From an uncultured delta proteobacterium (lineage in GTDB: Bacteria > Desulfobacterota > Desulfobacteria > Desulfobacterales > B30-G6): a stretch of 64,000 nt of DNA. Numbering within the stretch: the first letter of the stretch is position 1; every line of letters starts with the position of its first letter. The stretch spans positions 224,001 through 288,000 of the forward strand of contig CAWGLD010000005.1 in assembly GCA_963823335.1 (NCBI GenBank), read 5' to 3'. Positions 5,962-31,777 of this stretch are shown here, in pieces. A model generated the notes under the pieces. It was not told the origin of the DNA and did no database searches. It saw nothing but the letters and a program-made list of their open reading frames with translations. Made by a program: the position numbers and the translations under genes.

Positions 5962-5962
5962 T

Positions 5963-7361: not shown

Positions 7362-8300
7362 ATGCTAACGGAAAAAATCCTCAAGGGGGATATAAAAGCT
7401 GCTGCGCGGTTGATGCGGGATATTGAAGACGACATTCCGGAAACGCACCATGAGCTCAAGCGCTTGTTAGCACATACCGGAGGCGCCCACATCATCGGTC
7501 TGACCGGTGCACCTGGCACAGGCAAATCCACGTTGATAGACAGCATGATCCACCTTCTGCGGAAGGAGGGAAAAAGCGTCGGTATTTTGGCCATCGATCC
7601 CACAAGCCCTTTGTCCGGCGGGGCCATCCTGGGCGATCGTGTGCGCATGCAAAGACATGCCGAGGATAAAAGCGTGTTCATCAAGAGTATTGCCACCCGG
7701 GGTCAATTAGGTGGCCTCGCGCGATCTGCCTTTGGTATCGTTTCGGTCCTGGATGCCATGGGCAAGGATGTAATCCTTGTCGAAACCGTTGGTGTCGGCC
7801 AGGATGAAGTGGATGTCATGCGCCTGGCCCACACCACAATCGTGGTTGTCACGTCGGAAATGGGTGACGGTATTCAGGCTATAAAATCCGGCATATTGGA
7901 GATTGGCGATATCTTTGTTCTCAACAAGGCCGACCAGATGGGCTCGGATACAACACCGAATAAAATCAAGATGATGCTCAACATGCGACAACTCCGGAAA
8001 GGTGCCTGGAATCCTCCGGTTGTGCAGACCATTGCTATTCGTGGTCAAGGTGTCGATGAGCTGCTGCGGCAGGCGCAAAAGCATCTTGTTTTATTAAAGA
8101 CCCAAGGACTGGATCAATTCCGAAAACAAAAGGCGCTTGCCGAACTCACGACCCACTTAAAAACTATTCTGGTTGAGCGTGCCTTATCGACCTTGGAACT
8201 CAAAAATGAGTGGCAAACGATAATTGACGGTATCGTCAAGGGTGAAATCGATCCCTGCAGTGCCGCAGAAGAACTTGTATCTGAACTATTGAAAAAATAA
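7362..8300 (+). CDS. meaB: MeaB/ArgK-family GTPase
   Basis: GAPGTGKST, AIDPTSPLSGGAILGDRVRM, ETVGVGQDE, NKAD. Confidence 0.9.
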   Translation: MLTEKILKGDIKAAARLMRDIEDDIPETHHELKRLLAHTGGAHIIGLTGAPGTGKSTLIDSMIHLLRKEGKSVGILAIDPTSPLSGGAILGDRVRMQRHAEDKSVFIKSIATRGQLGGLARSAFGIVSVLDAMGKDVILVETVGVGQDEVDVMRLAHTTIVVVTSEMGDGIQAIKSGILEIGDIFVLNKADQMGSDTTPNKIKMMLNMRQLRKGAWNPPVVQTIAIRGQGVDELLRQAQKHLVLLKTQGLDQFRKQKALAELTTHLKTILVERALSTLELKNEWQTIIDGIVKGEIDPCSAAEELVSELLKK

Positions 8301-8317
8301 GGGACGATTTACGGAGA

Positions 8318-13753: not shown

Positions 13754-14710
13754 ATGTTTCAGCTCAGTAAGGAGCAAAAGGTTTGTGAAGTCGGTGGAGT
13801 GAAATTCGGTGGCCAGCCGGGTGAATACCCTTGTGTGTGTGTGAGTTCTATTTTTCAAAAAGGAGATAGGATTTTTGACGGAAAACGGAAGGAAGGCTTT
13901 AACGAGAAGAGGGCTGAGGAACTTTTAAAAGAACAAGAACGTCTGACCGTGGAAACCGGGGTTCCGGGAATGGCGGACATCGTCGCGAATACAGGAGAAG
14001 AGTTTAAAACCTATATCGATTTTGTTTCATCGGTCAGCAACATGCCGTTTTGCATCGACGCCTGGGTAATGAAACCGAAACTGGCCGGAGCGGCATATTG
14101 TGCCGAGAAAGGGTTGATGGATCGCATGTTCTACAACAGTCTCACCGTGTGGGAAAAGGATCTGGAGACTGAAATCCGCGAAATTTATCAACTGGGAGTT
14201 AAACACGTGCTCTTGGTCGCCTTTGACCAGGAAGACCAGATGCCCAGCGGAAGAATTACAGGTACCCAGAGACTGCTGGATGCGATTGATAAGGCGGGGG
14301 CGGAATTTGAAAGCATTTTCGTGGACACATCGGTAATGAACGGTCCGGCCACTGCCTTTTGTAGTATTGCCAATAGAATGATCAAAGAAAAGTGGGGTTT
14401 TCCCACCGGCAGCGCACCCAGCAACGGCTCCTATATGGATCTGACTAGATTCAAGGAAAACCTGGGTTTCAAAGGTTGGTCAGCCACGGATGCGGCTCTT
14501 GAATCTCTAGCTGCTTTTTTTTATCATGACATAATTTTTTCCGGACCAATGGCGGGAGCCGGCCGAATATTTCCTGCGGTTGCAGAAGCGGAGGCGTTTC
14601 TGGCTACCGCTGTTTTTGCCGAAACTAAAAAACTGCCAAAAGAACCGAGTCATCCATTGTACAAACTGTTCCCAGATTTTGTGGAGCAATTAAACGTTTT
14701 AGCCGGATAG
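13754..14710 (+). CDS. MtrH-family methylcorrinoid:pterin/THF methyltransferase (CmuB/MecF/MtgA-like)
   Basis: GAGGAGG RBS; MFQLSKEQKVCEVGGVKFGGQPGEYP N-terminus; FYNS; WGFPTGSAPSN. Confidence 0.85.
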   Translation: MFQLSKEQKVCEVGGVKFGGQPGEYPCVCVSSIFQKGDRIFDGKRKEGFNEKRAEELLKEQERLTVETGVPGMADIVANTGEEFKTYIDFVSSVSNMPFCIDAWVMKPKLAGAAYCAEKGLMDRMFYNSLTVWEKDLETEIREIYQLGVKHVLLVAFDQEDQMPSGRITGTQRLLDAIDKAGAEFESIFVDTSVMNGPATAFCSIANRMIKEKWGFPTGSAPSNGSYMDLTRFKENLGFKGWSATDAALESLAAFFYHDIIFSGPMAGAGRIFPAVAEAEAFLATAVFAETKKLPKEPSHPLYKLFPDFVEQLNVLAG

Positions 14711-14755: not shown

Positions 14756-15808
14756 ATGGCAGAGCTTACACCAAAAGAACGCGTCATGCGATTATTGCGA
14801 AAAGAACCCATTGACACCATGCCGTTTTTCAGCGGGATGGGTATGGTCGTGATGCCGGGTATCGACAAAGCGGGTGTCAATTTCGCAAGCATTCATACCG
14901 ATGCAGAGCGGATGGCCCGTTCAGCGCTGTGGTCTTCGAGATTAATGGGATTTGACTGTGCAGTCATACCCTATGATATGACCATGGAATCGGAAGCGAT
15001 GGGCAATACGATCAGTCTTTATAAGGACAGTGAAGACATCCTCTATCCAACCATCCCGCAAAAAATATGGAGCACCATAGATGAGGTGAAGATTCCCGAC
15101 AATATCGTCGAACTGGGACGTCTGCCACTGATCCCCAAAGCCATCGAGGTTATCAAGAAGGAAGCTCCCGAGCTTCCCATCGGATGCTGGCAACTGGGGC
15201 CGTTTACACAGGCAGGCCAGATTCTGGAATTGGATTTGATTCTCAAGGGCGTGTTCAAGCAGAAAGCCAAGGTCGAGGAACTGCTGGATAAATTGACTGA
15301 CATGATCATCAAGATCGGTCAGTGGATGCAGGCCTCCGGGTGTGACTATATGACACTTCGTGAGCCAGGTGTTGCCGCCGATCTACTAAGCCCGCGGACC
15401 TTTCGCGATATCATCAAACCCAGGTTGACACGTATTCTGGAAGCGTGGGGCTCACCTAAATTACTGCACATATGTGGACAGACCGATCCGTTGATAGAAA
15501 TGATGAACGAGTGTGGTGCTGATGGTCTGACCGTTGATATAAAATGCAATCTTGCCGAAGCTAGGAAAAAACTGGGTAACGATGTGCTCCTGATGGGAAA
15601 TCTGGACACCTACACCATGACCTGTGATGAGAAAACACCTGTAGATAAGACTGTCGCGCACGTGAAAGAGATCATCGACAGCGGTGTCGACGCCGTTATG
15701 CCGGGATGTGATTTGTGGCCAGCAATCATTGAAGAAAATATGAAAGCTGTTTCGGATACGACCCACACGTACGGGAAAAAACCCAGCCCCGCCGTTGGAA
15801 GACTTTAG
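14756..15808 (+). CDS. MtaA/CmuA-family (UroD fold) Zn methyltransferase, Cys form
   Basis: LTPKERV, ESEAMG, GRLP, GPFT, Zn ligands HICG and PGCD. Confidence 0.88.
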   Translation: MAELTPKERVMRLLRKEPIDTMPFFSGMGMVVMPGIDKAGVNFASIHTDAERMARSALWSSRLMGFDCAVIPYDMTMESEAMGNTISLYKDSEDILYPTIPQKIWSTIDEVKIPDNIVELGRLPLIPKAIEVIKKEAPELPIGCWQLGPFTQAGQILELDLILKGVFKQKAKVEELLDKLTDMIIKIGQWMQASGCDYMTLREPGVAADLLSPRTFRDIIKPRLTRILEAWGSPKLLHICGQTDPLIEMMNECGADGLTVDIKCNLAEARKKLGNDVLLMGNLDTYTMTCDEKTPVDKTVAHVKEIIDSGVDAVMPGCDLWPAIIEENMKAVSDTTHTYGKKPSPAVGRL

Positions 15809-15880: not shown

Positions 15881-16540
15881 ATGGCAACAAAAGAAGAGTT
15901 ACTCGAAAAAATGAAAACAGCGGTTATCGAATGGCAGGAAGACGATATCGGCGGATATGCCCAACAGTTTCTGGATGATGGGCACGTGGCCCTGGAAGGG
16001 ATTATGGATGGATTGGCGGCCGGGATGGAAGTTGTCGGTGACTTGTATGATCGTAACGAATACTTCGTTCCCGAGGTGTTGATGTGTGCAGATGCGTTAT
16101 ATGCGGGTCTGGCTGTCCTGAGGCCCCATGTCCCAAAGTCGGAAAGTGGACCCAAAGCCCAGGTCGTTATCGGAAGCATTCAGGGAGATGTACACGATAT
16201 CGGCAAAAATCTGGTCAAGATGATGTTTGACGTGGCCGGATGGGAAGTTCACGACCTGGGTCGCGATGTGCCGCTGGAAAATTTTGTTTCAGAGCAGCTG
16301 CGGACCGATTCGGAAGTTGTGGCCATGTCGGCCATGATGACCACGACCATGATGGGTATGAAGAAGGTCATAAAAATGATCAAAGACAAGAATCCTGACG
16401 TGGCCATCATGCTGGGCGGGGCGCCGGTAACCAAGGATGTGGCCAATCTCTTTGGAGCGGACGGCTATGCCGAATCAGCTGGAAATGCCGTATCGGAAGG
16501 GATTAAAATGATCGGCCGCCTGCGGGAAATGCACAAATAA
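15881..16540 (+). CDS. Methyltransferase corrinoid protein (MtaC/MtbC-like)
   Basis: Cap domain GMEVVGDLY..YFVPEV; GDVHDIGKNLV (DxHxxG); SAMMTTT; GGAP. Confidence 0.93.
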   Translation: MATKEELLEKMKTAVIEWQEDDIGGYAQQFLDDGHVALEGIMDGLAAGMEVVGDLYDRNEYFVPEVLMCADALYAGLAVLRPHVPKSESGPKAQVVIGSIQGDVHDIGKNLVKMMFDVAGWEVHDLGRDVPLENFVSEQLRTDSEVVAMSAMMTTTMMGMKKVIKMIKDKNPDVAIMLGGAPVTKDVANLFGADGYAESAGNAVSEGIKMIGRLREMHK

Positions 16541-16673: not shown

Positions 16674-18734
16674 ATGAGCGACGATAAAGCAATGGTAATC
16701 TTTCAGCCTTCTGGCCGAAGAGGGGAGATTGCTAAAGGGACCAATATAATTGAGGCATCTCGGTTGCTCGGGGTGGATATCGAAGCCCTTTGCGGGGAGA
16801 AGAAAGTCTGCGGGAAATGTGTTGTACGTATTGAAGAGGGGACTTTCGAAAAATACGGTATTACATCGAGTATAGAGAATGTGAGTTCATGGCAGGAGGA
16901 AGAGGAAAAATTCATCAATGCGGAGCGAAAACAGAAGGGATTTCGCTTGGGGTGTATGGCGAAGATCAACGATGATGTCCTCATTTTCGTTCCCGAGGAG
17001 TCACGTGCAGGGAAACAGGTGGTGAGCAAGGCTGCCCGAGATATTCACATCGAGCACGACCCGGCCGTGAAGGTTTACCATGTGCAGGTGGCGCCGCCAA
17101 CCTTTGAGGAACCCCTGGGTGATTTTGAGCGGGTTTGCCGGGGACTTCAACGGGAACACGGTCTAGGCGATCTGGGCATCGATGTTTTTGCACTCAGACA
17201 GCTGCCGGTTGCTCTGCGAGATGGGGACTGGGCCGTGACCGTGAGTGTGTGGAACGACAAAGAGGTCATCCGTGTTCGGCCCGGCAAGGAAGAGAAGTCA
17301 TACGGCTTGGCTATCGACGTTGGGACGACGACCGTTGCCGCTTATTTTTGCGACCTGACGACCATGGAAGTTATTGACACGGTTTCCATGATGAACCCTC
17401 AGTGTAAATACGGTGAAGACGTGATGGCACGCATCACGTACCATATGACCACACCGGATGGTCTTAAGCGGATGAGCGACGACATCATCGAAGGCGTAAA
17501 CGAGATGATCGACAAGGCGATTGATAACACCTTCCCGCCCAAGAAAAAGAAGAAGAAAAGAAAAGGGGAGGAGGGACCGGTAGAATATGTGGAAGCCCCT
17601 GAAGAAGGAAAGACCTACCTGAGGCTAACACATGAGGACATCGAGGATATCACCATCGGATTTAACACGGCCATGCACCATATATTTCTCGGGTTGGATC
17701 CGGAGTTTGTCGGACTTGCACCATTTCCGCCGGTCATTCACCATAGTATGGACATCAAAGCCAGAGACCTGGGTATCGGCATCAATCCTTCGTCCTACCT
17801 GTTCGTGCTTCCCATTGAAGCCGGATTTGTAGGTGCGGACAATGTGGGGGTACTGCTTGCCGAAGAACCCTATAAGCATGAAGAGAATCAACTGATCATC
17901 GATATCGGTACCAATGGTGAGTTGGTGCTGGGTAACCGGCACAAGTTGATTTCATCGTCATGTGCAACGGGCCCGGCCCTCGAAGGTGCTCAGATCGCAT
18001 TTGGTATGCGGGCGGCACCGGGAGCCATCGAACGGATATTGATCGACCCGGTAACCAAGGAGACAGACTACAAGGTCATCGGGCGTGATGCCTGGCGAAA
18101 GTTTTCCAAACCCAAGGATATGAAAGCCAAGGGCATCTGCGGTTCGGGTATTCTTGACCTTCTGGCCGAGTTGTACACATCGGGTGTGATCTTAAAAAGC
18201 GGTGTGTTTAACAAGAAGGCCCTGAAGGATCACCCCCGTTTCAGAATCAACCCGGATACCAAACAACCCGAGTTTGTTCTGGCCTGGGCTGAAGAGTCGA
18301 GTATCGACAAAGATATCGTCGTGACACAAAAGGATATCCGGCAGATTCAACTGGCCAAGGGGGCCTTGTATGCCGGCTGTAAACTGATGGTCAAACGGAT
18401 GGGACTTGAGAAGGTCGACCGGGTTAAAATAGCGGGTGCATTCGGCACACATGTGGATCGAACCAAGGCTCTGGTCATGGGTTTGTTCCCTGATTGTGAT
18501 ATCGACAAGATCGAAGGTGTCGGCAATGCCGCGGGTGACGGCTGTAGAACCGCCCTGTTGAACAGGAAGAAGCGTGCGGAAGCCAACTGGTGTTCTCAAA
18601 ATGTTGAATATATCGAACTTACCGTCGAAGAGACATTTCAGCAGGAATTTATGGAAGCCATGCAACTGCCGCATATGACGGATAAATTCCCACACCTCAA
18701 GGGTATCGTTCCGGATGACATTCTAAACCAATAA
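16674..18734 (+). CDS. ASKHA-type reductive activator of corrinoid proteins (RACo/DUF4445) with N-terminal 2Fe-2S
   Basis: CGEKKVCGKC..RLGC; DVGTTT; YGEDV; GFVGAD; DIGTNGE; GICGSG; AGAFG; GNAA. Confidence 0.92.
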   Translation: MSDDKAMVIFQPSGRRGEIAKGTNIIEASRLLGVDIEALCGEKKVCGKCVVRIEEGTFEKYGITSSIENVSSWQEEEEKFINAERKQKGFRLGCMAKINDDVLIFVPEESRAGKQVVSKAARDIHIEHDPAVKVYHVQVAPPTFEEPLGDFERVCRGLQREHGLGDLGIDVFALRQLPVALRDGDWAVTVSVWNDKEVIRVRPGKEEKSYGLAIDVGTTTVAAYFCDLTTMEVIDTVSMMNPQCKYGEDVMARITYHMTTPDGLKRMSDDIIEGVNEMIDKAIDNTFPPKKKKKKRKGEEGPVEYVEAPEEGKTYLRLTHEDIEDITIGFNTAMHHIFLGLDPEFVGLAPFPPVIHHSMDIKARDLGIGINPSSYLFVLPIEAGFVGADNVGVLLAEEPYKHEENQLIIDIGTNGELVLGNRHKLISSSCATGPALEGAQIAFGMRAAPGAIERILIDPVTKETDYKVIGRDAWRKFSKPKDMKAKGICGSGILDLLAELYTSGVILKSGVFNKKALKDHPRFRINPDTKQPEFVLAWAEESSIDKDIVVTQKDIRQIQLAKGALYAGCKLMVKRMGLEKVDRVKIAGAFGTHVDRTKALVMGLFPDCDIDKIEGVGNAAGDGCRTALLNRKKRAEANWCSQNVEYIELTVEETFQQEFMEAMQLPHMTDKFPHLKGIVPDDILNQ

Positions 18735-18757: not shown

Positions 18758-19156
18758 ATGCAGAAAAAACAACATGAGAGCGAATCTGCACGAAATGTAT
18801 CCGTAACATCACATGCGGTCTGTATTCATGTGATGCCCGGTATCTGCGGATTTACCGCTGTTATCAGCGCATGCAAACTGGAAAATAAGAAAATACGTTT
18901 CCAGATTTCAGATTCAGAGTGTGGGCAGATCAAGATGCTTGCGGCAACTTTGCAAGAAATGGATTGGAAAGACCTGTTTGTGCCCCTGACACGCAACCCG
19001 GTGTATGTAAATGCCGAGAAATCAGGATGCCACCCGTCATGTGTCATACCTGCGGCGATGCTCAAAGCCGCAGAGGTAGCGATGGGAATGGCGATTCCAA
19101 AAGATGTTTATTTCCGATTTCAACCGTGTGACGGGGAGCCGATCCATGAAGACTAA
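18758..19156 (+). CDS. DUF6951-like Cys-containing protein
   Basis: PGICGF, SEC, CHPSCVIPAAMLKAAEV...PKDV. Confidence 0.65.
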   Translation: MQKKQHESESARNVSVTSHAVCIHVMPGICGFTAVISACKLENKKIRFQISDSECGQIKMLAATLQEMDWKDLFVPLTRNPVYVNAEKSGCHPSCVIPAAMLKAAEVAMGMAIPKDVYFRFQPCDGEPIHED

Positions 19157-19742
19157 AACGGTGGTACCGTTTCGATCCAATGCAGGCATATCTTACGCGT
19201 TGATGAACCGGCTTTTGAGCAGCGGAAAAAAATACGGGCTGAACGCAATATTCCCATTCAGCCCGGAAAAAATTGTCGTTGCCGAATGGGTACTTTTAAA
19301 GTGCCAGTACGGCTGCAGTTGCTACAATACCAACTGGACATGTCCCCCAACGACACCGGATCCTGAAAGGGCACGCGCGATTCTAAACGAATACTCGTTG
19401 GCGTTGTTTCTCGTCGGCAGCAGGAACTGCTCAGATTTTTACCTGGACAACTCGCGTAAACGCGCCAGTCAGGTAAAATGTTGGAAAGGCACCATATCAC
19501 TGGAAAGGATGCTTTTTCTTGAAGGTTACTATAAAGCGTTCAGTCTTGTGGGTGAATGCTGCGCTCTGTGCAAGAGCTGTGCATATCCGGAAGTTTGCCG
19601 GTTTCCACAGGAAAAAAGGCCCGCAGTGGAGTCTTTTTCGATCGATGTGATCAGCACCTTGCACAATCTTGAGACGAACTCGACCGTGGCAACAAAACTG
19701 GACGACAATTTCAACTATTTCTCGATCATTCTTCTTGAATAG
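19146..19742 (+). CDS. DUF2284 predicted metal-binding protein
   Basis: KCQYGCSCYNTNWTCPP, CALCKSC..CRFP..RPAVES. Confidence 0.8.
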   Translation: MKTKTVVPFRSNAGISYALMNRLLSSGKKYGLNAIFPFSPEKIVVAEWVLLKCQYGCSCYNTNWTCPPTTPDPERARAILNEYSLALFLVGSRNCSDFYLDNSRKRASQVKCWKGTISLERMLFLEGYYKAFSLVGECCALCKSCAYPEVCRFPQEKRPAVESFSIDVISTLHNLETNSTVATKLDDNFNYFSIILLE

Positions 19743-20016: not shown

Positions 20017-21051
20017 ATGGCCAAACAAATGCTCATAGATGCTTATCGGGGAAAGATGACGCCCAAAGCACCGTGGGTACCGTATGCTGGTGTGCATTGT
20101 GCATTCTTGATCGAAGAAGAAGCCGATACAATGCTAAAAGATCCGGAACTTCTTGCAAAGGGTGTTGTGGAGGCAGCAAAACGGTACAAAGCAGACGGTA
20201 TCCCCCTTCTATTCGATCTCTCGGTGGAAGCCAACTCCATTGGTTGTGACTTGAAATGGTGGCCGGACAATGTTCCTTCTGTCCAGAATCATCCCTGTTC
20301 AGACAAAACCCCTCAGGACGCAGGACTTAAGCTCCCCACCAAGGATTCCGGCAGGTGGCCCGTTATTTTTGAGGCTGCAAGAATCGCCAAACCTCAACTG
20401 CAAGAGCTTGACTGCGCTCTTATGGGTCTTTTTTGTGGCCCGTTGACACTGGCGTCCCATCTGGCTGGTGTGCGTATCTTTACCGATGTATACAAAAACA
20501 GGGAATTTGCCCACGAAGTCGTGAAATTTGCAGGTGCGGTGGGTGCATTATCTGCACAATTCTATGCGGAAATGGGTTGTGAGATCATTGCCTGTGTGGA
20601 CCCGGTTGCCTCACAGATTAAGTCCGAAACCTTCAAGGAGTTCGTTACGCCTAATTGTCAAGAGGCGATTAAGGTTATTCACGACGCCGGATTGACCTCA
20701 TCCTTTTTTATTTGTGGCGACTGTACCAGGGTCATGGAAGATGTTTGCCAGATCGGTACGCATGGGTTTGCCATCGATGAACAGCTGAACTTGAATTTTG
20801 TACGCGACCTTGCGCGCAAACACGGTGTCGGGTTTGGTGGCAACTTGAAGCTGACCCTTGCTTTGAGCCTGGGTTTGATCTCCTCCAGAGAAGATGCCAT
20901 CGTGAGCCTTGCCGCCGGAGGGCAACACGGCTACACGTTTGCACCCGGCTGAGATATGCCATACGATGTTCCGGTGGAACATATGGACCAAGCGCTCGAA
21001 GTCAGGGATTGGTATGAACAATTCTATGCCAAGTATCCGGAATCTTGGTAA
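20017..21051 (+). CDS. MtaA/CmuA-like (UroD fold) methyltransferase selenoprotein, 344 aa, Sec312
   Basis: AAGGAG RBS; APWVPYAGVH, GPLTLA, FICGD; APG-UGA(20950-20952)-DMPYDVPVEHMDQALEVRDWYEQFYAKYPESW* aligns with PGCD of 14756; SECIS-like hairpin. Confidence 0.92.
20959..20986 (+). promoter_or_regulatory. SECIS-like hairpin
   Basis: CCAU-(ACG bulge)-AUGUUCC-GGU-GGAACAU-AUGG; loop starts 20 nt after UGA. Confidence 0.85.
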
Positions 21052-21078
21052 ACCATTTATGAAAGGAGACTTCGGATT

Positions 21079-21468
21079 ATGGCAGATAAAATACACATAG
21101 ATGTTCTGACCCTGGACAGTGTTCAATGCGCTGCCTGCGGGTACATGATGGAGTCGATTGCCGCGCTCCCAGGTGATATACAGGCGGTGATCGAATACAA
21201 GGAACACTCGATTAAAAACAAAGAAGGTGTCGGTAAATTTCTCGAGCTCAAAGGCAAGGTGCTCCCAACGATTTGCATTGAGAACGATCTGGTGTTTGAG
21301 AGTATCATCCCGCAATACGAGGAACTCATCGACGCTATGGCTCAAAGAGCACCCAACGATGAATTACGGGAAAAGATTAAAGCCCTTCGCGAGCACGGTT
21401 TCGAGTTTGACAAAATACAGGAAAACCTGGCCAAGGCGGGCTCCGGTCAAAAAACGCGCGCGAACTGA
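21079..21468 (+). CDS. Thioredoxin-fold protein (C-A-A-C)
   Basis: AAGGAG RBS; DVLTLDSVQCAACGYM, VLPTI, FESIIP. Confidence 0.85.
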   Translation: MADKIHIDVLTLDSVQCAACGYMMESIAALPGDIQAVIEYKEHSIKNKEGVGKFLELKGKVLPTICIENDLVFESIIPQYEELIDAMAQRAPNDELREKIKALREHGFEFDKIQENLAKAGSGQKTRAN

Positions 21469-21602: not shown

Positions 21603-21905
21603 ATGTCCATAAATCATCTTGAGGGGGTACTGGCGTTAAAGCAGCTTGTAATTAGGCATGGACTGCCGAGAGACGATTATGCGTTCTTTGGTGTCAAATG
21701 TCCTTATTGCGGGAAAATGGATCGCATCTGCCGTTTGGATCCTCCCGGGAGACTGAAGCAGGCTATGGGTCCCGAGGACACACTGTCATATGCAGAGCGT
21801 TGGAATACGGTTTCCCTTCCTGATCATTTGTTGGGTGTGTGTAAATTTTGCCACAACCTCCTGAAGCTGGACGAGACGATGAAGGCCGCCCCCCTGGCCG
21901 AGTAA
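21603..21905 (+). CDS. Hypothetical Zn-finger-like protein
   Basis: CPYCGK and CKFC pairs. Confidence 0.65.
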   Translation: MSINHLEGVLALKQLVIRHGLPRDDYAFFGVKCPYCGKMDRICRLDPPGRLKQAMGPEDTLSYAERWNTVSLPDHLLGVCKFCHNLLKLDETMKAAPLAE

Positions 21906-22289: not shown

Positions 22290-23324
22290 ATGTTTGACAC
22301 GACGCGGGTATATTTAATTACGGGTTTTCTCGGAAGCGGCAAAACCACATTGTTGAATCGGATTATCGACGGCTTCCCCAAGGACAAAAAACTGACCCTC
22401 CTGGTAAACGAATTCGGCGAGGTAGGTGTGGACGGCACCTTGGTGGAGGGTGACGACATCGATATGATGGAAATCAGCAAAGGGTCGATTTTCTGTGTCT
22501 GTGTCAAAACCGATTTTATCAAAGGCCTGTATGAACTCAACACGAAAGTCAAACCCGATGTCCTTTTGATCGAATCCACCGGGGTGGCAAACCCCACTGA
22601 CCTGAAAAGAGATCTCAAACTTCCTATATTCAACGATCGGTTTCATTTTCAGGAGCAGTTCTGCGTCATCGATGCCGTCCATTTTATGGATGCTTTCGAA
22701 GTCTATGCTTCCCTCGAAAAACAGATTGCCTCGTCCAGTGTCTTTATTATTAATAAAACGGATATCGCAACGCCTGAAGGTATCGAAGCGATCAAAAAGG
22801 TGGTCCGGCAATTTCATCCGGACCCCTTGTTTTATGAGACCACCTATGCTGATTTACCACTGAATCGATTTTTTGACTTCAATGGGGGGCACAACCCGGA
22901 TACGCAGAGAACAAAAGCTTTGGTTGAGCATACCCATGTGCTATCCGAACAGGAGTTGGAGAGATTTCTCGATGATATGCTCGACAATCCTGACCTGGAA
23001 ATCACCCCACCGGATGCCCTTGTTTCCGTGGCCTATCAATGGGAAGGCAACAACCTTGAGCAGATTAAAAACATGGCCAGGGCATTGCCTGCCGATATCG
23101 TGCGTGCGAAAGGTTTTGTTGTCGCAGAGGGCAGCTTATTTATTTTCAACTATGTCATGGGAACCTGGAGTATAGAACCATCGAGGAAGCCGATGGAGCG
23201 CGTCGTTCATAAAAACATCATTGTCTTCATCGGTCCTCAGGAAACGATGGCAGGAATTGAATCTGTGATAAGCGGTGAAAACTGGAAAAGCAGGGGGATT
23301 TTTCAGCCCTATTCCGAGGGATAG
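22290..23324 (+). CDS. COG0523/CobW-family GTPase (atypical GSIFCVC motif)
   Basis: TGFLGSGKTT, NEFGEVGVDG, ESTG, NKTD, RAKG. Confidence 0.88.
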   Translation: MFDTTRVYLITGFLGSGKTTLLNRIIDGFPKDKKLTLLVNEFGEVGVDGTLVEGDDIDMMEISKGSIFCVCVKTDFIKGLYELNTKVKPDVLLIESTGVANPTDLKRDLKLPIFNDRFHFQEQFCVIDAVHFMDAFEVYASLEKQIASSSVFIINKTDIATPEGIEAIKKVVRQFHPDPLFYETTYADLPLNRFFDFNGGHNPDTQRTKALVEHTHVLSEQELERFLDDMLDNPDLEITPPDALVSVAYQWEGNNLEQIKNMARALPADIVRAKGFVVAEGSLFIFNYVMGTWSIEPSRKPMERVVHKNIIVFIGPQETMAGIESVISGENWKSRGIFQPYSEG

Positions 23325-23367: not shown

Positions 23368-24291
23368 GTGACGATGGATATGTATGATTTGATGATTGTT
23401 GGTGCGGGACCTGCAGGCATGACCGCTGCATTGTATGCGCAGAGGATGGGGCTGGATGTGCTTGTTTTTGGCGATATTGCCGGGGGCAGCACGTATATGA
23501 TCGAACAACTGAACAATTTTCCCGGGTTTATGAACGGGATTCCTGGAACCCAGTTCGGTCTTCAAACGTTTCAGCAGGCACAGCAAGAAGGCGCTTTCTT
23601 TACCATGACCCGGTTGGACGGCCTTTCTTTTGCAAACGGGCGGTTTATCGGAACCGATGCGGCCGGGAAATCGATCGTCGCAACGTGTGCCATTGTCGCT
23701 ACCGGAAGAACCCCCCAAAGATTGGACATTCCAAACGCAAATCTGAAAGGCATTCATTTCTGCTCGATATGCGATGGCCCTCTTTACAGGAACAAGCATG
23801 CGCATCTATCGGTCATCGGAAGCGATAACGCTGCCGGGCAGCATGCCATAGCCCTATCACGGGTGGCGGACAAAGTGCTCTTGGTTTGTCGGAGCGAGCA
23901 GCTGCTGATGGATGCTGTGCACCGGAAACAGATCGCATCCAAACAGAATCTCGATGTGCTTTGCGGAGTCGAAGTCTTGGGCTACGAGGGTCTCGACATG
24001 ATCGAGGGCATGAGGGTCAGGACAATGGAAGGTACTGAAAAACTATTGCCGGTGGATGGTGTCTTTCTGGCCATTGGCTGGCAACCGAATACAGGAATGC
24101 TGGATCTTGCCGCCGATACCACAGCGGAGGGCTATTTGAAGACCGATGAAAAATTAATGACCTCATTTCCAGGACTTTTTGCCGCCGGAGATGTCCGTAA
24201 TACAGATATGTGGCAGGTGTTGACGGCGTGTGCCGACGGCGCAAGGGCTGCCAAGCATGTTGCTGGGTTTTTATCGATCAGCCGACAATAA
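23368..24291 (+). CDS. Thioredoxin reductase-like flavoprotein
   Basis: GAGPAG, NFPG, ATG, CSICDG, GLFAAGDV; second Rossmann motif altered (GSDNAA). Confidence 0.85.
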   Translation: MTMDMYDLMIVGAGPAGMTAALYAQRMGLDVLVFGDIAGGSTYMIEQLNNFPGFMNGIPGTQFGLQTFQQAQQEGAFFTMTRLDGLSFANGRFIGTDAAGKSIVATCAIVATGRTPQRLDIPNANLKGIHFCSICDGPLYRNKHAHLSVIGSDNAAGQHAIALSRVADKVLLVCRSEQLLMDAVHRKQIASKQNLDVLCGVEVLGYEGLDMIEGMRVRTMEGTEKLLPVDGVFLAIGWQPNTGMLDLAADTTAEGYLKTDEKLMTSFPGLFAAGDVRNTDMWQVLTACADGARAAKHVAGFLSISRQ

Positions 24292-24316
24292 AATAGTCAT
24301 AAGAGGAGGCAGCCGA

Positions 24317-25462
24317 GTGAAAGCACCGAAACCATTGACGCCAAACTCACCGGTCAAACTGATATTTACCGGTGGATTTCTAGGAACGGGCAAAACCACA
24401 GCCCTTGCAGTATTGGCAAGAGAACTCATCGGTCAGGGTAAACGGGTCGGAATTATAACCAACGACCAAAGCGAAAACCTGGCGGATACGATCATTGTCA
24501 AGCAGTTACTCGGCGAGTTGGGTGTGCCGGTAGAGGAGGTTGTTGAGGGTTGTTTCTGCTGCAAATTCGATGAGCTTATCGATCAGATGGAGAAAATTCT
24601 CGTACACAAACCGGATGTCCTGATGGGTGAACCTGTGGGGAGTTGTACCGATTTTGTCGCGGCGGTTGCCAACCCCATAAAGATTCATTACAGGGATGCT
24701 TTCAGATTCGCACCATTTTCAACCATGGTAGACCCTGTTCGGGTTGGGGAATTTCTGATGGAGGACACCCAGACGACTTTTCCAGAGGAAGTGTCCTATC
24801 TTTTTCGCAAGCAGCTGGAGGAAGCGGACCTGATTGTGCTGAACAAGATCGACCAGTTATCCGATCCGGAAAGAGAGCGGCTTGTGGACGTTCTCAAGAA
24901 AAACTATCCTAAAAAGGAAGTGATGCCTGTGTCGGCAAAATACGGAAACGGTATGTCCGAATGGCTCGATGTCTTGCTTTCCGGAAGCCCCGGTGCGGAC
25001 ACGGTTTTGCATGAAATCGACTACGATCGTTATGCCAGAGCCGAGGCAGTGCTGGGATGGCTCAATGCTGCCGTAAAAATTACCGCCGACCGGTCGTTCG
25101 ATTCCGCAGTATGTTTGCGGGATCTGGCAGTAAAGTTAAGAGATGCCTTCCGGGAGATAAATGCCGGTATCGGCCATATAAAAATTGTCATGACCAGTGC
25201 CGGAAAATCCATGTGGGTCAATCTTACCCACCTGGCCGCCGAACCGATGCTCAGCGATAAACAGCTGGGAGATATCCCCGGGGGCAGTCTCATTGTCAAC
25301 GCCAGGGTTCAGATCGTTCCCGAGGTACTGGAAACCATCGTGCGCAGCGCCATTGAAGAGACATCCGTTTCACAAGGCTTTCGATGGGAAATCATCGACC
25401 TGCAATGCTTCAGCCCGGCATATCCTAACCCGCCTTACCTGGTTCGTGAAGAAAGCGTCTAA
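24317..25462 (+). CDS. COG0523-like GTPase
   Basis: GAGGAGG RBS before GTG; GGFLGTGKTT, TNDQ, GCFCC, EPVGSC, NKID. Confidence 0.85.
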   Translation: MKAPKPLTPNSPVKLIFTGGFLGTGKTTALAVLARELIGQGKRVGIITNDQSENLADTIIVKQLLGELGVPVEEVVEGCFCCKFDELIDQMEKILVHKPDVLMGEPVGSCTDFVAAVANPIKIHYRDAFRFAPFSTMVDPVRVGEFLMEDTQTTFPEEVSYLFRKQLEEADLIVLNKIDQLSDPERERLVDVLKKNYPKKEVMPVSAKYGNGMSEWLDVLLSGSPGADTVLHEIDYDRYARAEAVLGWLNAAVKITADRSFDSAVCLRDLAVKLRDAFREINAGIGHIKIVMTSAGKSMWVNLTHLAAEPMLSDKQLGDIPGGSLIVNARVQIVPEVLETIVRSAIEETSVSQGFRWEIIDLQCFSPAYPNPPYLVREESV

Positions 25463-26467: not shown

Positions 26468-27967
26468 TCATGAATCCAAATCGAGGAGTTCGAGTGCAGC
26501 GTCGGTTGGAGACATTCGACCCTCTTTTACGGCGCCGGTCAGTTTCAGAACCTTGGTTTTAGATCGTTTGTAAAACCGCTCTTTTAAACCTTCTTCCACA
26601 AGCGACCACATCCAATTTACGGATTGCCGGCGTCTTTTCTGTGAAAACTCACCCGATGCTTCCATTCTGGATCGGTAGTCCGAAATGGCCTGCCATATGT
26701 CGATGATGCCGTCCATGTTTTTTGAACTGCAGGTGAGAACCGGTACTTTCCATGCCGGGGACTCCTGTTTGACGATGCTCAGTGCGGATTCATAAATTTT
26801 TTTTGCTTCCCTGGCTTTTTCAATGTTGTCCCCATCGGCCTTGTTGATGACGATGGCATCCGCCAGTTCCAATATGCCTTTCTTGATCCCTTGAAGTTCG
26901 TCTCCTGCACCGGTGATCATCAACATCAGAAAAAAATCGACCATTGATGCCACATGTGATTCCGACTGACCGATACCCACGGTTTCCACCAGCAAGATTT
27001 CATATCCTGCAGCCTCGCAGATGACCATACTTTCTTTGGTTTTTTTTGCGATGCCGCCTAAAGTGCCGCCGGAGGCAGAGGGGCGGATAAATGCGTTCGG
27101 ATGGCCCGAGAGCCGTTTCATTCGGGTTTTGTCTCCTAGAACACTACCTCCGGTTTTCGAACTGCTGGGATCTACCGCTAGAACCGCCACACGATGCCCC
27201 ATATCGGCGAGCATTGTCCCGAAACTTTCTATAAATGTACTTTTACCTGCACCTGGAACGCCTGATATGCCGATGCGTAAAGCTTTACCCGATAAAAGCA
27301 GCAGTTGTTCGATAAGTTGGTCGGCTACCTGGCGATGTCCGGCCCGAGTGTCTTCAATGAGGGTTATGACCTTGGCGATAACCGCCCTGTCCCCGGCAAC
27401 GACGCCATCGATACATTGTCTCAGCTCAGGACGGGTTTGTTTTCTTTCCTCTAAATGGTAGAGTAATCGAGATAACCCCGATACTATATCATGACCAATA
27501 TCCAGGACTTCGTCGAAGCCGAATTCCTGATGTTTGTTTTCGACTTCCTCAAAGGCCTGCTTCCAGGCGACATTTAAAATTTTGCCACCCGATGCAACAG
27601 AAACAGCTTCCACCAGTCGGGTGACGGATGATTCCGATAGTTTGTAATCGAACGGAAACAGGACAGCATGGACATCGTTCTCAACGGCAGCTCGGGCTGT
27701 TTGTCCATGGGGAAGCCCTCCGGGATGGATATCCACGTCAAACCCCCACTGGGAAAAGGCGGTGGGAACGAGATTGTCAATACGGTTCGCGCTATTTGAT
27801 ACAATGCCACAAAGAAGAATTCTTGGCCGGCGCCCCATCCTTTGTTCGAAAAGGTCCGTTCTCCGGTTGAGAGTATGAGAGATGGTGTTGTCCAGAAGAA
27901 TGCTTTTAAAGCGTGCGAACAGGTTTCGGTTCCCAGGTCGCGTTTTATTTGCTTGGATTTGGCGCAT
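26468..27967 (-). CDS. meaB: Fusion of degenerate mutase-type B12-binding domain and MeaB GTPase
   Basis: GRRPRILL..GFDVDI..ARAAVENDVH without DxHxxG; then GVPGAGKST, DPSS..GGSVLGDKTRM, ETVGIGQSE, NKAD. Confidence 0.85.
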   Translation of the reverse strand: MRQIQANKTRPGNRNLFARFKSILLDNTISHTLNRRTDLFEQRMGRRPRILLCGIVSNSANRIDNLVPTAFSQWGFDVDIHPGGLPHGQTARAAVENDVHAVLFPFDYKLSESSVTRLVEAVSVASGGKILNVAWKQAFEEVENKHQEFGFDEVLDIGHDIVSGLSRLLYHLEERKQTRPELRQCIDGVVAGDRAVIAKVITLIEDTRAGHRQVADQLIEQLLLLSGKALRIGISGVPGAGKSTFIESFGTMLADMGHRVAVLAVDPSSSKTGGSVLGDKTRMKRLSGHPNAFIRPSASGGTLGGIAKKTKESMVICEAAGYEILLVETVGIGQSESHVASMVDFFLMLMITGAGDELQGIKKGILELADAIVINKADGDNIEKAREAKKIYESALSIVKQESPAWKVPVLTCSSKNMDGIIDIWQAISDYRSRMEASGEFSQKRRRQSVNWMWSLVEEGLKERFYKRSKTKVLKLTGAVKEGRMSPTDAALELLDLDS

Positions 27968-28169
27968 ATGATATGGCAGTATAAAAACTTAGGTGTTGCG
28001 ATGCATGCGTGTCACATCTCATGGTCCGATTTTACCGCCGAAACATATTTGAAAAACCGGCCCATGTCAACAGAATGACTCATGTACAGTGGTCGAATCG
28101 TTTTGCAACACTTCTTCCCGAAATATGGGCGAAAAATTCTGATCAATACATGAAAGGTCAACTTACAAT

Positions 28170-28508
28170 ATGGGAAACGGAAATAAAATTCTACTGGAAG
28201 TGATGTACAAGGCAAGTTATTGCCTGCCCTGTTTCTATATGGATGAAACCGTACTCGAAATTCTCCCGCAATATGCAGATCAGGTGGAGTATCGTCGGGT
28301 GGAATTCATGAAGGGAAGTGGAAAGAAACGCTTTTTCGAGTTGTCTTACGCACTTTTCGGAAAGGAAAACGTCCACAAATATGCCCGTGTGGCACCTGTC
28401 CCCTCACTGTTTATCGATGGTGAACTGGTTTTCGATGCCATTCCGCCCATGTTCGAACTGGAAGAGGCGATTCTTGAGGCATTGGAAAAAAGGGGAATTG
28501 ATACTTGA
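28170..28508 (+). CDS. Thioredoxin-fold protein (C-L-P-C)
   Basis: YCLPCFYM, APVPSLFIDG; Cys paralog of 25497. Confidence 0.82.
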   Translation: MGNGNKILLEVMYKASYCLPCFYMDETVLEILPQYADQVEYRRVEFMKGSGKKRFFELSYALFGKENVHKYARVAPVPSLFIDGELVFDAIPPMFELEEAILEALEKRGIDT

Positions 28509-28512
28509 AATT

Positions 28513-29031
28513 TTATTTTTCGATGCCGACGCGTGCCTTTACACCGCTCTGATAATAGTGCTTACGGGCTTTCATCTGGGTCACCGTATCTGCATTTTCG
28601 ATTACGCGAGGTGACGCATAGCGCCCGGTGATGATCAATTCCAGAGAATGGGGTTTGTTGATAATTAATCCCAGGAGATCGTTTGCGGCAATTAATCCGA
28701 GTCTGACGGCCACGGTGATTTCATCCAAGACCATCATGTTATATTTGTTTTCAGCCATGATGGTCCTAACCCGTTTTAACCCGATCTGGGCCGCGAGAAT
28801 ATCTTCGGGTTTGGGGTTCCTGTCGGTAAACGTTCCGAGACCGTATTGCTCTACCGTTATTTGGTCGCTGAGTCTTCTGAACGCTTTGATTTCACTATAC
28901 TCCCCTTTTTTTACAAACTGTGCGAAAAATATCTTGAAGCCTGAGCCTGCAGCCCTTATGGTCAGACCTATGGCTGCTGTTGTTTTCCCCTTGCCATCAC
29001 CTGTGAGAACATGTACATAGCCCTTAGACAT
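28513..29031 (-). CDS. cobO: Cob(I)alamin adenosyltransferase CobO/BtuR
   Basis: TGDGKGKTTAAIG, QFVK, VLDE, ITGR, KHYY..G..GIE. Confidence 0.9.
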   Translation of the reverse strand: MSKGYVHVLTGDGKGKTTAAIGLTIRAAGSGFKIFFAQFVKKGEYSEIKAFRRLSDQITVEQYGLGTFTDRNPKPEDILAAQIGLKRVRTIMAENKYNMMVLDEITVAVRLGLIAANDLLGLIINKPHSLELIITGRYASPRVIENADTVTQMKARKHYYQSGVKARVGIEK

Positions 29032-29182
29032 GATTTTCCCATTTCTGAAATGTTTGATTTAATACAGGATATTGCCTGTATTTATTAACAGTCGGCATTT
29101 TGACTGTCAATTCATTTTTATATGGCTGCATGCCGTGGCACCTCTTTTGTTGTCACACCGTTGTTGTAAGGGATAACCTGGA

Positions 29183-30487
29183 ATGTCCATTCTGTTTGAA
29201 AAAACGCGCCTCAACAATCTGACGCTGAACAACCGTTTTATTCGGTCTGCCACATGGGCCGGCATGGCAGGCGAAGACGGTATCGTGACACCGAAACTCC
29301 TAAAGCTGATGGGCGATCTTGCCGACGGGGGCGTGGGTCTGATTATCACCGGTCATGCCTATGTGCACCCGAATGGAATCCATTCTGCCGGACAACTTGG
29401 CATCGACCGGGATCTGCTTATACCGGGATTGGAGCAGATGACACGTTTGGTGCATGAGAAAAGCGCAAGAATTTTCGCCCAGCTTGGATACGGGGGCTCC
29501 TATCTGTCCCAATCCAGGGTGGCCAATATGTCGACCATGGATATAGGGGCTGTCAGTGACGCCTTCGCTTTGGCAGCGGACAGGGCCAGACGTGCCGGGT
29601 TTGACGGGGTTCAGATTTTAGCGGCCCACGGGTTTTTGCTGAGCCAGTTTCTCTGCCCGAGATACAACCCGCGTCGGGACGGATACGGGGGATCACTTGA
29701 AAACCGTGCCAGAATGCTACTGGAAGTTCTGAATGCCATAAGGAAAACAGTCGGTTCCGAATTTCCGGTGCTCGTAAAATTAAATGCCAGCGACGGGGTC
29801 GAAAACGGCATGACCCTGCAGGAATCCCTAAAAGTTGCCGATAGGCTTCAGGAAGAGGGGGTCGATGGTATAGAACTCAGTGGAGGCTTGTTGAACGTCG
29901 CCAATCTTATGGAGGCTAGCGGCGGCGATGAAGAGAACAACGTTTACTTCGAAGACGCAGCCGGTATCTATAAAAAATCCATTCATGTCCCTCTAATACT
30001 GGTGGGTGGTATTCGATCTTTTGCAAAGGCTGAAAGTCTGGTTTCATCCGGCACGGCTGATTATATCGGCATGTGCAGGCCCCTGATTTGTGAGCCGGAT
30101 CTGGTTTCCCGCTGGAAATCTGGAAACACGGAAAAGGCGTCATGCATTTCGTGCAATAATTGTGTTCAGGAAGCCATAAGAGGATCGGGGATAGCATGTG
30201 CGCCACCACAGGAAAAAAAAGTGGAACAGACCTTTTTTCCCCATAAGGAGATCCGGCTGCCTGCCGGACTTCCTTTTCCGCCGGGTACAAGTTATATTGT
30301 ATCCATCGGTCTTGAGCAATGGGGCGCCACCTACCTGCCGGTGACCAAGATTCAGATGCTTGTTAATGGGAAGACTCTGGGACACGGGCTCTCCATCCCC
30401 CAAGACAGTCGAGACAGACAGAAAATATTCCGGGTGGTAGAAACGCTCATGTCCGGGGATGTTGAGAAGGAAAACACCAACAAATGA
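29183..30487 (+). CDS. NADH:flavin oxidoreductase (OYE family) with C-terminal extension
   Basis: NRFIRSATW, AGFDGVQILAAHGFLLSQFL, N.R.D.YGGSLENR, CISCNNC. Confidence 0.88.
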   Translation: MSILFEKTRLNNLTLNNRFIRSATWAGMAGEDGIVTPKLLKLMGDLADGGVGLIITGHAYVHPNGIHSAGQLGIDRDLLIPGLEQMTRLVHEKSARIFAQLGYGGSYLSQSRVANMSTMDIGAVSDAFALAADRARRAGFDGVQILAAHGFLLSQFLCPRYNPRRDGYGGSLENRARMLLEVLNAIRKTVGSEFPVLVKLNASDGVENGMTLQESLKVADRLQEEGVDGIELSGGLLNVANLMEASGGDEENNVYFEDAAGIYKKSIHVPLILVGGIRSFAKAESLVSSGTADYIGMCRPLICEPDLVSRWKSGNTEKASCISCNNCVQEAIRGSGIACAPPQEKKVEQTFFPHKEIRLPAGLPFPPGTSYIVSIGLEQWGATYLPVTKIQMLVNGKTLGHGLSIPQDSRDRQKIFRVVETLMSGDVEKENTNK

Positions 30488-31128
30488 TCAAAAATGTTTG
30501 GGTGCTGGGTGCGGGAAAATTTGGTCTTAAAGCGGTTGAGCGGGTCAAACAGATGCACCCGGAGGTGGATTTAACCGTTATTGATATAATAGAGCATCCC
30601 GGGTCGATGCTTTCAGCCCATGGCGTGGTGTATGTTCGCAGAGACGGGATCGAATTTCTCGATAAGAAGCTGTTAGAAACCGGAGGACCGGATTGGATTA
30701 TTCCGGCCATTCCGGTTCATGTAGCCTGTGAGTGGATAAAACGCAGGCTGTCCTCGATCCGTGCTGTTCAGAACATGAATCTGCCCGAACGGTTAGCAGA
30801 CCTGCTCCCCAACACCTTGCAGGGAACACACGGGGAATTGTACAGCAGCATGGCCGATTTTTTATGTCCGGACGACTGTATCGAACCCTATGGCATTTGT
30901 ACAATTACAAATGAGAAAAGGGCTTATCGGCTATACGATTTGCTGTCATCGATTCAGCTCGAGCCCTACAAAACAGTGGTTGTCAAAAGTCGGCAGATAT
31001 GTGCCGGTGTCGGGGGGTATCGGCCGGCTGACTTAATCGGCACCCTGGAAGATATCCGGCGGTATGACGCACCCATATTGTTGAGCACATCCTGTAAATG
31101 CCATGCGGTAGTAAGTGCTTTTCAGTAG
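30484..31128 (+). CDS. Hypothetical Rossmann-fold, Cys-rich protein
   Basis: VLGAGKFG; CPDDCIEP..C; STSCKCH. Confidence 0.65.
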   Translation: MIKNVWVLGAGKFGLKAVERVKQMHPEVDLTVIDIIEHPGSMLSAHGVVYVRRDGIEFLDKKLLETGGPDWIIPAIPVHVACEWIKRRLSSIRAVQNMNLPERLADLLPNTLQGTHGELYSSMADFLCPDDCIEPYGICTITNEKRAYRLYDLLSSIQLEPYKTVVVKSRQICAGVGGYRPADLIGTLEDIRRYDAPILLSTSCKCHAVVSAFQ

Positions 31129-31261
31129 ACCCCATAGTTGCATAAACAACATGGCAAAGTATAGATAATAAGCTGTTATTATATACAATACCGTTGCGAT
31201 AGCGCCATTCTTTTGCAACACTGGGGTAGATTGTCCGGTCCAGGACATCTGACCTGGATAT

Positions 31262-31777
31262 CTATTTTTCGATACCCTTCCTTGCCGGAACACCTTTCTG
31301 GTAATAGTGCTTTATCTCTATCATCTCGGTAACAAGATCGGCTGCCTCCATGACGACAGGTGCCGCCCCCCTTCCCGTGATCACCAGCTCAATTTCATTG
31401 GGTTTGGCGGCAATAAGATCGAGAAGACGCTGGACGTCGAAAAGCCCGCAGGCGGTTGCCACGTTGCCCTCCTCGATGATGATTAGGTCGTATTTGCGGG
31501 AGAGAAGGACACGTTCTATACGCTCTAGACCGGCCTGCGCAGCATCGACCTCATCCTGGGGTGGTTTGTCCTTGATAAAATGACCAAGACCATACTGTTC
31601 GACACTAATGAGATCGGAAAATTTGGCAAGCGTTTTTATCTCGCTGTAATCACCCTTTTTCAGAAACTGGGCGATGAATACTTTCAGGTCAGCCCCGGCG
31701 GCGCGTATGGCTAAACCTATCGCTGCTGTGGTTTTCCCTTTACCGTTTCCCGTGTATATCTGTACAAATCCCTTCAT
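31262..31777 (-). CDS. cobO: Cob(I)alamin adenosyltransferase CobO/BtuR, second copy
   Basis: TGNGKGKTTAAIG, QFLK, ITGR, KHYYQKG; ATGA overlap with upstream gene. Confidence 0.9.
   Translation of the reverse strand: MKGFVQIYTGNGKGKTTAAIGLAIRAAGADLKVFIAQFLKKGDYSEIKTLAKFSDLISVEQYGLGHFIKDKPPQDEVDAAQAGLERIERVLLSRKYDLIIIEEGNVATACGLFDVQRLLDLIAAKPNEIELVITGRGAAPVVMEAADLVTEMIEIKHYYQKGVPARKGIEK

Follow-up and report, generated by a model that had tools for sequence, protein, structure and literature searches.

Within a 64,000-nucleotide stretch of DNA from an uncultured delta proteobacterium (contig CAWGLD010000005.1, positions 224,001 to 288,000; hereafter the window), we analysed a gene with an in-frame UGA codon that appears to encode a selenocysteine (Sec)-containing relative of the corrinoid methyltransferase MtaA. 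The features of the gene itself, in window coordinates, are the following:

20017..21051, forward strand: gene of the Sec enzyme, a homologue of MtaA-like corrinoid methyltransferases with the URO-D fold; 344 codons plus stop, from translation
20950..20952, forward strand: in-frame UGA, read as Sec at residue 312, in the motif A-P-G-U-D
20953..21048, forward strand: the 32 C-terminal codons after Sec, forming the last barrel helix, with variation dominated by third positions
20967..20981, forward strand: hairpin resembling a selenocysteine insertion sequence (SECIS), with a 6-bp stem UGUUCC/GGAACA and the triloop GGU, beginning 14 nt after the UGA

The frame that opens with ATG at 20017 meets TGA at 20950-20952 right after F-A-P-G, giving a plain open reading frame (ORF) of 20017-20952. 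Readthrough yields U312 followed by D-M-P-Y-D-V-P-V-E-H-M and ends at TAA 21049-21051 after 344 residues, so that translation bears out the preliminary description of the locus, which had noted an ORF stopping at APG* and a 344-residue readthrough protein. That description had also set A-P-G-U-D-M and F-I-C-G-D-C of this gene against M-P-G-C-D-L and H-I-C-G-Q-T in a 350-aa relative at 14756-15808, and the translations agree; the relative, there called a 'paralog', is only 18% identical. Public annotation (NCBI and JGI records) names the truncated 311-residue product.

A scan of one genome per species returned 162 relatives; locus and neighbour counts given here are out of the best 80 of these, each from another species and many cut by contig ends, and alignment and codon counts are out of 81 sequences of the subfamily. 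At the aligned codon, 79 of the 80 loci have TGA and the remaining one, L052, has TGC, a proportion that overstates the share of Sec forms, since taking the best 80 of 162 hits to a Sec-form query favours the Sec clade. The loci were not picked for carrying TGA, because all but one of the six search patterns are located upstream of it. Residue 312 is accordingly Sec in 80 of the 81 sequences and Cys in one. The preliminary description would have been refuted had no other genome shown UGA at this site; many do. The carriers belong mostly to Desulfobacterota, including the Olavius Delta 1 symbiont (L007) and the isolate Desulfatitalea alkaliphila M08but (L005), and three belong to Bacillota (Desulfotomaculum copahuensis, L073; Desulfofundulus australicus DSM 11792, L079; and a metagenome-assembled genome). 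The symbiont from which L007 comes is described as selenoprotein-rich in the text of PMC1976440. Among the best 120 database homologues, 116 are gene calls that all break off after A-P-G, at 311 or 307 aa, and the remaining four are full length with Cys at the position of residue 312. These four Cys orthologues are 74-80% identical to the query. Orthologues with Cys at this position are P0026, P0079, P0111, P0119 and P0124, and it is also found in locus L052.

Sequence variation beyond the UGA follows codon structure: entropy at the three codon positions is 0.37, 0.36 and 1.05 bits after the TGA, compared with 0.40, 0.23 and 1.37 bits before it, and the stop at codon 344 is kept in 77 of the 81 sequences. 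To judge from this pattern, the 32 codons 3' of the UGA evolve as coding sequence, and the UGA at 20950-20952 is, on the comparative evidence, a genuine and conserved selenocysteine codon.

The hairpin that follows has its arms at 20967-20972 and 20976-20981 and its GGU loop at 20973-20975. All six stem pairs are identical in 81/81 sequences, wobble positions included, and the triloop has the consensus G-[G/U]-[U/C], its first base always being G. Among 227 conserved degenerate codon columns (those with the majority residue in at least 70 of the 81 sequences), codons 317, 318, 319 and 321 are the only four without any synonymous change. Codon 320, which lies in the loop, varies in the amino acid that it encodes (Val, Leu, Ala or Ser) while the stem stays constant, and is GTG in all 69 sequences having Val. 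These comparisons argue that the hairpin is under constraint at the RNA level, and its weight comes from them rather than from the stability of any single sequence. The preliminary description had seen a bulged hairpin with a GGU loop; the upper stem and loop stand, but the lower, bulged stem (CCAUA/UAUGG) is peculiar to the window, the codon of Pro315 being CCA in only 10 of 81 sequences. The Cys form L052 retains the hairpin, as expected after a recent change from Sec to Cys. Its distance from the UGA and the G in its apical loop agree with the rules of the bSECISearch model for bacterial SECIS elements.

A second patch of synonymous constraint lies near the 3' end of the gene, at codons 338-340 (21028-21036), where codon 338 is GCC in all 63 sequences with Ala and codon 340 is TAT in 78 of 81. 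It may be linked to the translation start of the next gene, 27 nt past the stop.

The protein scores 154 bits against Pfam URO-D (cut-off 23.9), and a profile of the subfamily run against the PDB matched MtaA 4ay7 with E = 2.7e-57, compared with 4.7e-20 or weaker for uroporphyrinogen decarboxylases. An AlphaFold model of the Sec enzyme (predicted local distance difference test, pLDDT, 95.5; predicted template modelling score, pTM, 0.93) places a helix at residues 320-336, after the Sec, with pLDDT of 93-95 for residues 311-330 and 82 for residues 331-340. The top Foldseek matches of this model were 4ay8 and 4ay7 (TM 0.88, root-mean-square deviation 2.3 A, identity 23%), decarboxylases reaching TM (TMq) values of 0.79-0.84 in the same comparison. 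The product is, by profile and fold, a 344-residue homologue of MtaA-like (MT2-type) corrinoid methyltransferases, and the MtaA-like assignment made in the preliminary description is upheld by all three of the URO-D, 4ay7 and structural matches.

The HMMER alignment with MtaA 4ay7 gave these correspondences within the active site:

Phe231: His of L-H-I-C-G
Cys233: Cys of L-H-I-C-G
Asp254: first Glu of V-E-E-K
Residue 312 (Sec): Cys of A-P-G-C

We take these His, Cys, Glu and Cys residues of MtaA to be its zinc ligands. Sec312 is thus placed at the end of the last barrel strand, beside the invariant Cys233, where MtaA has its C-terminal zinc-ligand Cys. Phe231, Cys233, Asp254, Glu255 and Asp313 are each found in 81/81 sequences. 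The H-x-C...C zinc motif is therefore altered throughout, with His replaced by Phe in 81/81 sequences, the first Cys kept in 81/81 and the second Cys replaced by Sec in 80/81. The preliminary description had spoken of a remodelled site; Phe231 in place of His in every sequence supports this, but the added Cys236 does not belong to it, and we rejected that residue as a site member because only 46/81 sequences carry Cys there, with Ala in the other 35. Sulfur-methylating members of the superfamily have a His-Cys-Cys sphere according to the text of the preprint by Kountz and Balskus (PMC10418091). When site patterns were scored in 76 sequences (74 full-length representatives and two window proteins), 33 had H-C-C and 19, the closest relatives, had F-C-C, the rest being without the Cys pair. 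His27 and Cys77 are nearly invariant in the F-C-C group, and His27 is invariant in the subfamily, where it might substitute for the lost His.

Directly 3' of the Sec enzyme gene, 73 of the 80 loci encode a 129-aa protein with a C-A-A-C motif, hereafter the partner; seven loci lack it, five of which run out of sequence within 360 nt of the Sec codon. The partner belongs to no Pfam family and is 'hypothetical' in every source, and a language-model atlas places it among look-alikes of glutaredoxin and Thioredoxin_3. It is more conserved than the enzyme, with a mean column identity of 81% and an invariant segment around C-A-A-C. Relatives of the enzyme at about 38% identity, in Sphaerochaetaceae, Cloacibacillus, Thermovirgaceae and others, are fused to a similar domain; these proteins of about 455 residues retain F-C-C-G, P-G-C-D and C-A-P-C, and the fused protein was modelled with pLDDT 92.6 and pTM 0.91. 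In one 455-aa fusion (P0159), Cys233 has become Thr, Cys312 has become Arg and the CxxC is gone, all together, a single case which hints that Cys233, Cys312 and the CxxC of the partner may act as a unit.

Prediction of the complex, in which the enzyme chain was the Cys orthologue P0026 (from another organism, 80% identical) and the scored chain was the window partner, each with an alignment, gave a median interface score (ipSAE) of 0.72, compared with 0.00 for the best of three controls. As a yardstick, 58 of 80 solved complexes attain the mark for this score, as do 2 of 110 mismatched pairs, counts that are rough since we used our own alignments. Contact agreement between runs was at least 55% and the pLDDT of the partner at least 81. 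In the prediction, the confident interface lies over the barrel mouth and includes residues 26, 233-235, 312-313 and 315 of the enzyme and 15-19 and 22-23 of the partner, and the CxxC of the partner is predicted to dock onto Cys233 and Sec312. The score is unlikely to stem from a remembered complex, because the related PDB entries found were MtaA alone. The modelling supports binding between enzyme and partner.

Two paralogues of the partner were seen in the window. One, at 5963-6262 on the forward strand, is 50% identical over residues 19-84 and has TGA at 6011-6013 in place of the first Cys of its CxxC, giving U-I-A-C; the hairpin after this TGA has a minimum free energy of -19 compared with -10.8 for shuffles (z = -3.29), and the motif D-F-x-Q-U-x-A-C with TGA had eighteen matches in related loci. 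These features make the UxxC paralogue a probable second selenoprotein of the system. A tblastn search brought it to light after it had been missed by an all-frame scan of the window for further genes with in-frame TGA, which gave no convincing case besides the Sec enzyme gene. A third thioredoxin-fold protein, with the motif C-L-P-C, lies at 28170-28508 on the forward strand. Against the HUIPC-motif thioredoxin-like (seleno)protein model HUIPC_Trx_selen (NF047660), the partner, the UxxC paralogue and the C-L-P-C paralogue score 33, 41 and 73 bits; with scores below the 105-bit cut-off they are weakly similar relatives rather than members, one of them having U-x-x-C at the same motif.

The gene order of the window recurs in related loci. 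The neighbours of the Sec enzyme gene are as follows:

13754..14710, forward strand: MtrH-family methyltransferase, likely a methyl-corrinoid:pterin methyltransferase (MtrH 172 bits; PRK00979 286 bits, cut-off 287); 21/80 loci
14756..15808, forward strand: canonical H-x-C...C MtaA-like methyltransferase of 350 aa (URO-D 200 bits; PRK06252 234 bits); 45/80 loci
15881..16540, forward strand: methyltransferase-cognate corrinoid protein (B12-binding, B12-binding_2; pyl_corrinoid 188 bits); 44/80 loci
16674..18734, forward strand: RACo-type reductive activator of corrinoid proteins (RACo_C_ter 311 bits); 49/80 loci
18758..19156, forward strand: DUF6951 Cys-rich protein (93 bits); 61/80 loci
19104..19742, forward strand: DUF2284 Cys-rich predicted metal-binding protein (139 bits); 48/80 loci
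21079..21468, forward strand: the 129-aa thioredoxin/glutaredoxin-fold partner ('Trx129'), C-A-A-C; 73/80 loci
21603..21905, forward strand: 100-aa zinc-ribbon-like protein with two CxxC pairs and no Pfam or NCBIfam match; 41/80 loci
22290..23324, forward strand: COG0523/CobW-type metallochaperone GTPase (cobW 134 bits, plus CobW_C); 60/80 loci
23368..24291, forward strand: low-molecular-weight flavoprotein resembling thioredoxin reductase (TrxR), C-S-I-C (Pyr_redox_2; TRX_reduct 233 bits, below the 343 cut-off); 43/80 loci
24230..25462, forward strand: second CobW-type GTPase, its true start probably downstream of 24230 (cobW 84 bits); 19/80 loci

Genomic association of the Sec enzyme with a corrinoid protein and a RACo activase was thus found in 44 and 49 of the loci, respectively. 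COG0523 subfamily 13 is described in the text of PMC2770081 as co-localising with Zn-dependent corrinoid methyltransferases.

A FastTree phylogeny was computed for the 81 sequences together with five Cys forms and eleven outgroups, the fused ones among the latter being trimmed to 360 residues. Taken as a topology irrespective of support values, it places three Cys forms at the base of a single Sec clade, with three further Cys forms nested inside that clade. The three Bacillota sequences (L073, L079 and L080) fall within Desulfobacterota. The neighbourhoods of these three are rearranged, with two corrinoid-protein genes upstream. The nested position of the Bacillota copies, together with these rearrangements, suggests horizontal transfer of the enzyme-partner pair, and the tree as a whole suggests that Sec was gained once, arising from Cys near the base of the clade, and has reverted to Cys on a few occasions.

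Among known systems, MtaA of Methanosarcina mazei (4ay7/4ay8) shares the TIM-barrel fold and is the best PDB sequence match. MtaA is a methylcobalamin:coenzyme M methyltransferase, whereas the present protein is bacterial and linked to MtrH rather than to coenzyme M chemistry, with His replaced by Phe, the second Cys by Sec, and a CxxC thioredoxin-fold partner that looks obligatory. Type 1 mlp clusters, as described in PMC10418091, likewise hold MtaA-like proteins (Mlps) of anaerobic bacteria beside a corrinoid protein and a RACo-type activase; that text proposes the Mlps for methyl-sulfur or methyl-selenium compounds and reports that ClMlp2 methylates selenide from methylcobalamin. Compared by this description only, Mlps have the His-Cys-Cys sphere and clusters without a pterin methyltransferase, whereas here an MtrH-type gene is present and the His is not. 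A term search of the same text gave no thioredoxin partner, CobW, MtrH or Desulfo- taxa, and its selenocysteine passages contain no Sec-containing Mlp. Genes for 'uroporphyrinogen decarboxylase' have been tied to the use of dimethylselenide in Methanococcus, according to the text of PMC11097638. Table 1 of PMC13188914 lists selenoprotein forms of HgcA, a corrinoid protein, and of arsenite methyltransferase (ArsM), in which the Cys contacting a metal or metalloid, again in methyl-transfer biochemistry, has likewise given way to Sec. Both folds are unrelated to the one studied here. HgcA is a corrinoid carrier, not a methyltransferase, and ArsM depends on S-adenosylmethionine.

Selenoprotein families are few, and most are thiol oxidoreductases. 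A 2026 review of 119 selenoprotein families, self-described as the most comprehensive inventory, has no URO-D-fold or MtaA-type enzyme in its Table 1 (PMC13188914), and NCBIfam release 20 holds no selenoprotein model for the Sec enzyme. A Sec-containing URO-D/MtaA protein was likewise not found by a full-text literature search whose scope left outside supplementary tables, Haft and Gwadz 2023 and reference 64 of PMC13188914, nor by term look-up in the main texts, supplementary tables excluded, of PMC1976440, PMC9312934, PMC8318568 and PMC12013277. The gene represents a real, conserved and apparently undescribed selenoprotein family, in which the MT2 type of corrinoid methyltransferase is remodelled and has a thioredoxin-fold partner of its own.

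Taken as a whole, the locus is best explained, and we think probably, by a genuine selenoprotein with hairpin-aided UGA decoding that is a homologue of MtaA-like methyltransferases, has Sec at the ligand site and depends on its partner. Decoding of UGA to Sec would be aided by the hairpin at 20967-20981, and the enzyme would move a methyl group between the corrinoid protein of the cluster and a soft sulfur or selenium atom, the corrinoid protein being kept active by RACo and tied to pterin via the MtrH-type enzyme. Cys233, Asp254 and Sec312 would hold or replace the usual metal, with the usual His ligand gone and the CobW-type GTPases serving metal insertion. The site would face the CxxC of the thioredoxin-fold neighbour, which could either draw electrons from the TrxR-like flavoprotein to reduce a selenenylsulfide between Cys233 and Sec312 or bring in the thiol that binds at the site. 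The retained Asp and the CobW genes fit a metal site, and the loss of His, the CxxC partner and the TrxR-like gene fit a redox pair; a metal site needing the partner for reduction or completion seems slightly more likely than a metal-free redox site. The preliminary description had proposed selenolate as a metal ligand or as a methyl-accepting nucleophile; a third role outside that proposal, with Sec as the redox or thiol-exchange partner of the CxxC neighbour, is, from gene context, at least as plausible.

Several observations weigh against the reading of a partner-dependent, MtaA-like selenoenzyme. Family scans of the 64-kb window found no selA, selB or selD, and a tRNA scan of the same window gave 0 tRNA genes and hence no tRNA-Sec. 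The hairpin is unremarkable when a single 67-nt sequence is folded (z = -0.92, matched or surpassed by 37 of 200 shuffles), RNAalifold found no covariation in the stem across the 81 sequences, because every stem pair is invariant, and an Rfam scan of 20900-21100 with E up to 10 returned no SECIS family, only two chance hits (a snoRNA and an L19 leader). The score of 116.8 bits against NCBIfam MtaA/CmuA (TIGR01463) is under the 235.4 cut-off, which makes the protein MtaA-like but places it outside the curated family. The His zinc ligand is absent, so that metal binding is putative. As regards the partner, L052 (Cys) and L064 (Sec) have a CobO-like gene directly downstream in its place, and to these points are added the Cys form of the enzyme chain in the predicted complex and the favouring of the Sec clade among the loci counted. 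L052 and L064 are sister loci, both with Ala at position 236.

The alternatives differ widely in how well they account for the same data. In a metal-free redox site, which we regard as possible though on balance unlikely, Cys233 and Sec312 would form a selenenylsulfide in each cycle, for example while a methyl-S or methyl-Se substrate is reductively released or activated, and the CxxC partner together with the TrxR-like flavoprotein would restore the reduced state. Such a site would account for Phe in place of His in 81/81 sequences, and in the 19 of 76 scored ones that are the closest relatives, for the CxxC partner in 73/80 and the TrxR-like gene in 43/80 loci, for a docking model that sets the CxxC of the partner on residues 233 and 312, for a partner paralogue with Sec at the first CxxC Cys, typical of redox-active motifs, and for the joint loss of all three Cys features in P0159. 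It leaves Asp254 superfluous, however, as a pure redox pair would not need this residue, which is invariant in 81/81 sequences and whose counterpart in MtaA is presumably the fourth zinc ligand; CobW-type genes, known companions of Zn-dependent corrinoid methyltransferases, occur in 60/80 loci, and the invariant His27 could stand in for the lost His. It is improbable that the partner is itself the substrate, its first Cys taking the place of coenzyme M at the Sec/Cys site and being methylated or demethylated. The interface over the barrel mouth, where residues 15-19 of the partner lie in contact with 233-235 and 312-313 of the enzyme, the 81% mean column identity and the covalent fusions in relatives would all suit this idea, but that interface comes from prediction only, the TrxR-like neighbour suits a redox role better, and we know of no precedent among MT2 enzymes.

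We consider it very improbable that translation really ends at the UGA, or that this codon reflects a sequencing error or a nonsense mutation of recent date, with a 311-residue product and some other element explaining the downstream conservation, even though gene callers and public annotation end the protein at 311 aa and the hairpin alone is not significantly stable. The same TGA is present in 79/80 species' loci, the frame downstream is coding-like with a conserved stop, Cys orthologues continue through the site, and the 32 residues that would be missing form a confidently predicted last barrel helix and align with MtaA to its C-terminus. A pseudogene or sequencing error was rejected on the conserved TGA and the coding-like frame. 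Genome-wide reassignment of UGA to Trp or Gly, for which we found no support, deserves next to no credence: TGA ends 22 of the 53 longest non-overlapping ORFs of the window, which argues that it is a normal stop and has not been reassigned, and the residue that relatives show here is Cys rather than Trp or Gly.

If the preferred reading of a genuine, partner-dependent selenoenzyme is pursued further, we would tentatively propose, as a possibility short of probable, that this is the first natural alkyl-transfer enzyme with selenium as its active-site chalcogen. Sec312 would then act as a selenolate ligand of the catalytic metal or pass through a covalent intermediate (Se-methyl or selenenylsulfide), with the enzyme obligately complexed to a dedicated CxxC (in paralogues UxxC) thioredoxin-fold protein; the whole would be a redox-coupled, selenium-dependent and previously undescribed system, widespread in sulfate-reducing Desulfobacterota and transferred to Bacillota. 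If true, sulfate reducers, both in sediments and in a marine worm symbiosis, would have selenium at the catalytic centre of their methyl-group metabolism. A coupling of methyl transfer to thiol/selenol redox chemistry is hinted at by the neighbouring genes for the partner, the TrxR-like protein and the CobW-type GTPases, and the Sec and Cys forms offer a natural pair for asking what role the chalcogen has in zinc-thiolate alkyl transfer. Recognition of the Sec codon would also correct the annotation of truncated calls, which account for 116 of the best 120 hits in the database and for 79 of the 80 loci studied.

More widely, the window is centred on vitamin B12. The regions 1549-9364 and 26468-39377 encode two BtuF-like proteins, DUF1638, two MeaB and three CobW-type GTPases, together with two CobA/CobO adenosyltransferases, a BtuCD-type ABC transporter, a TonB-dependent receptor and DUF4465. 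At 29183-31128, on the forward strand, lies an Oxidored_FMN ORF of 434 aa, the TGA of which overlaps the start of a 214-aa ORF without a family match.

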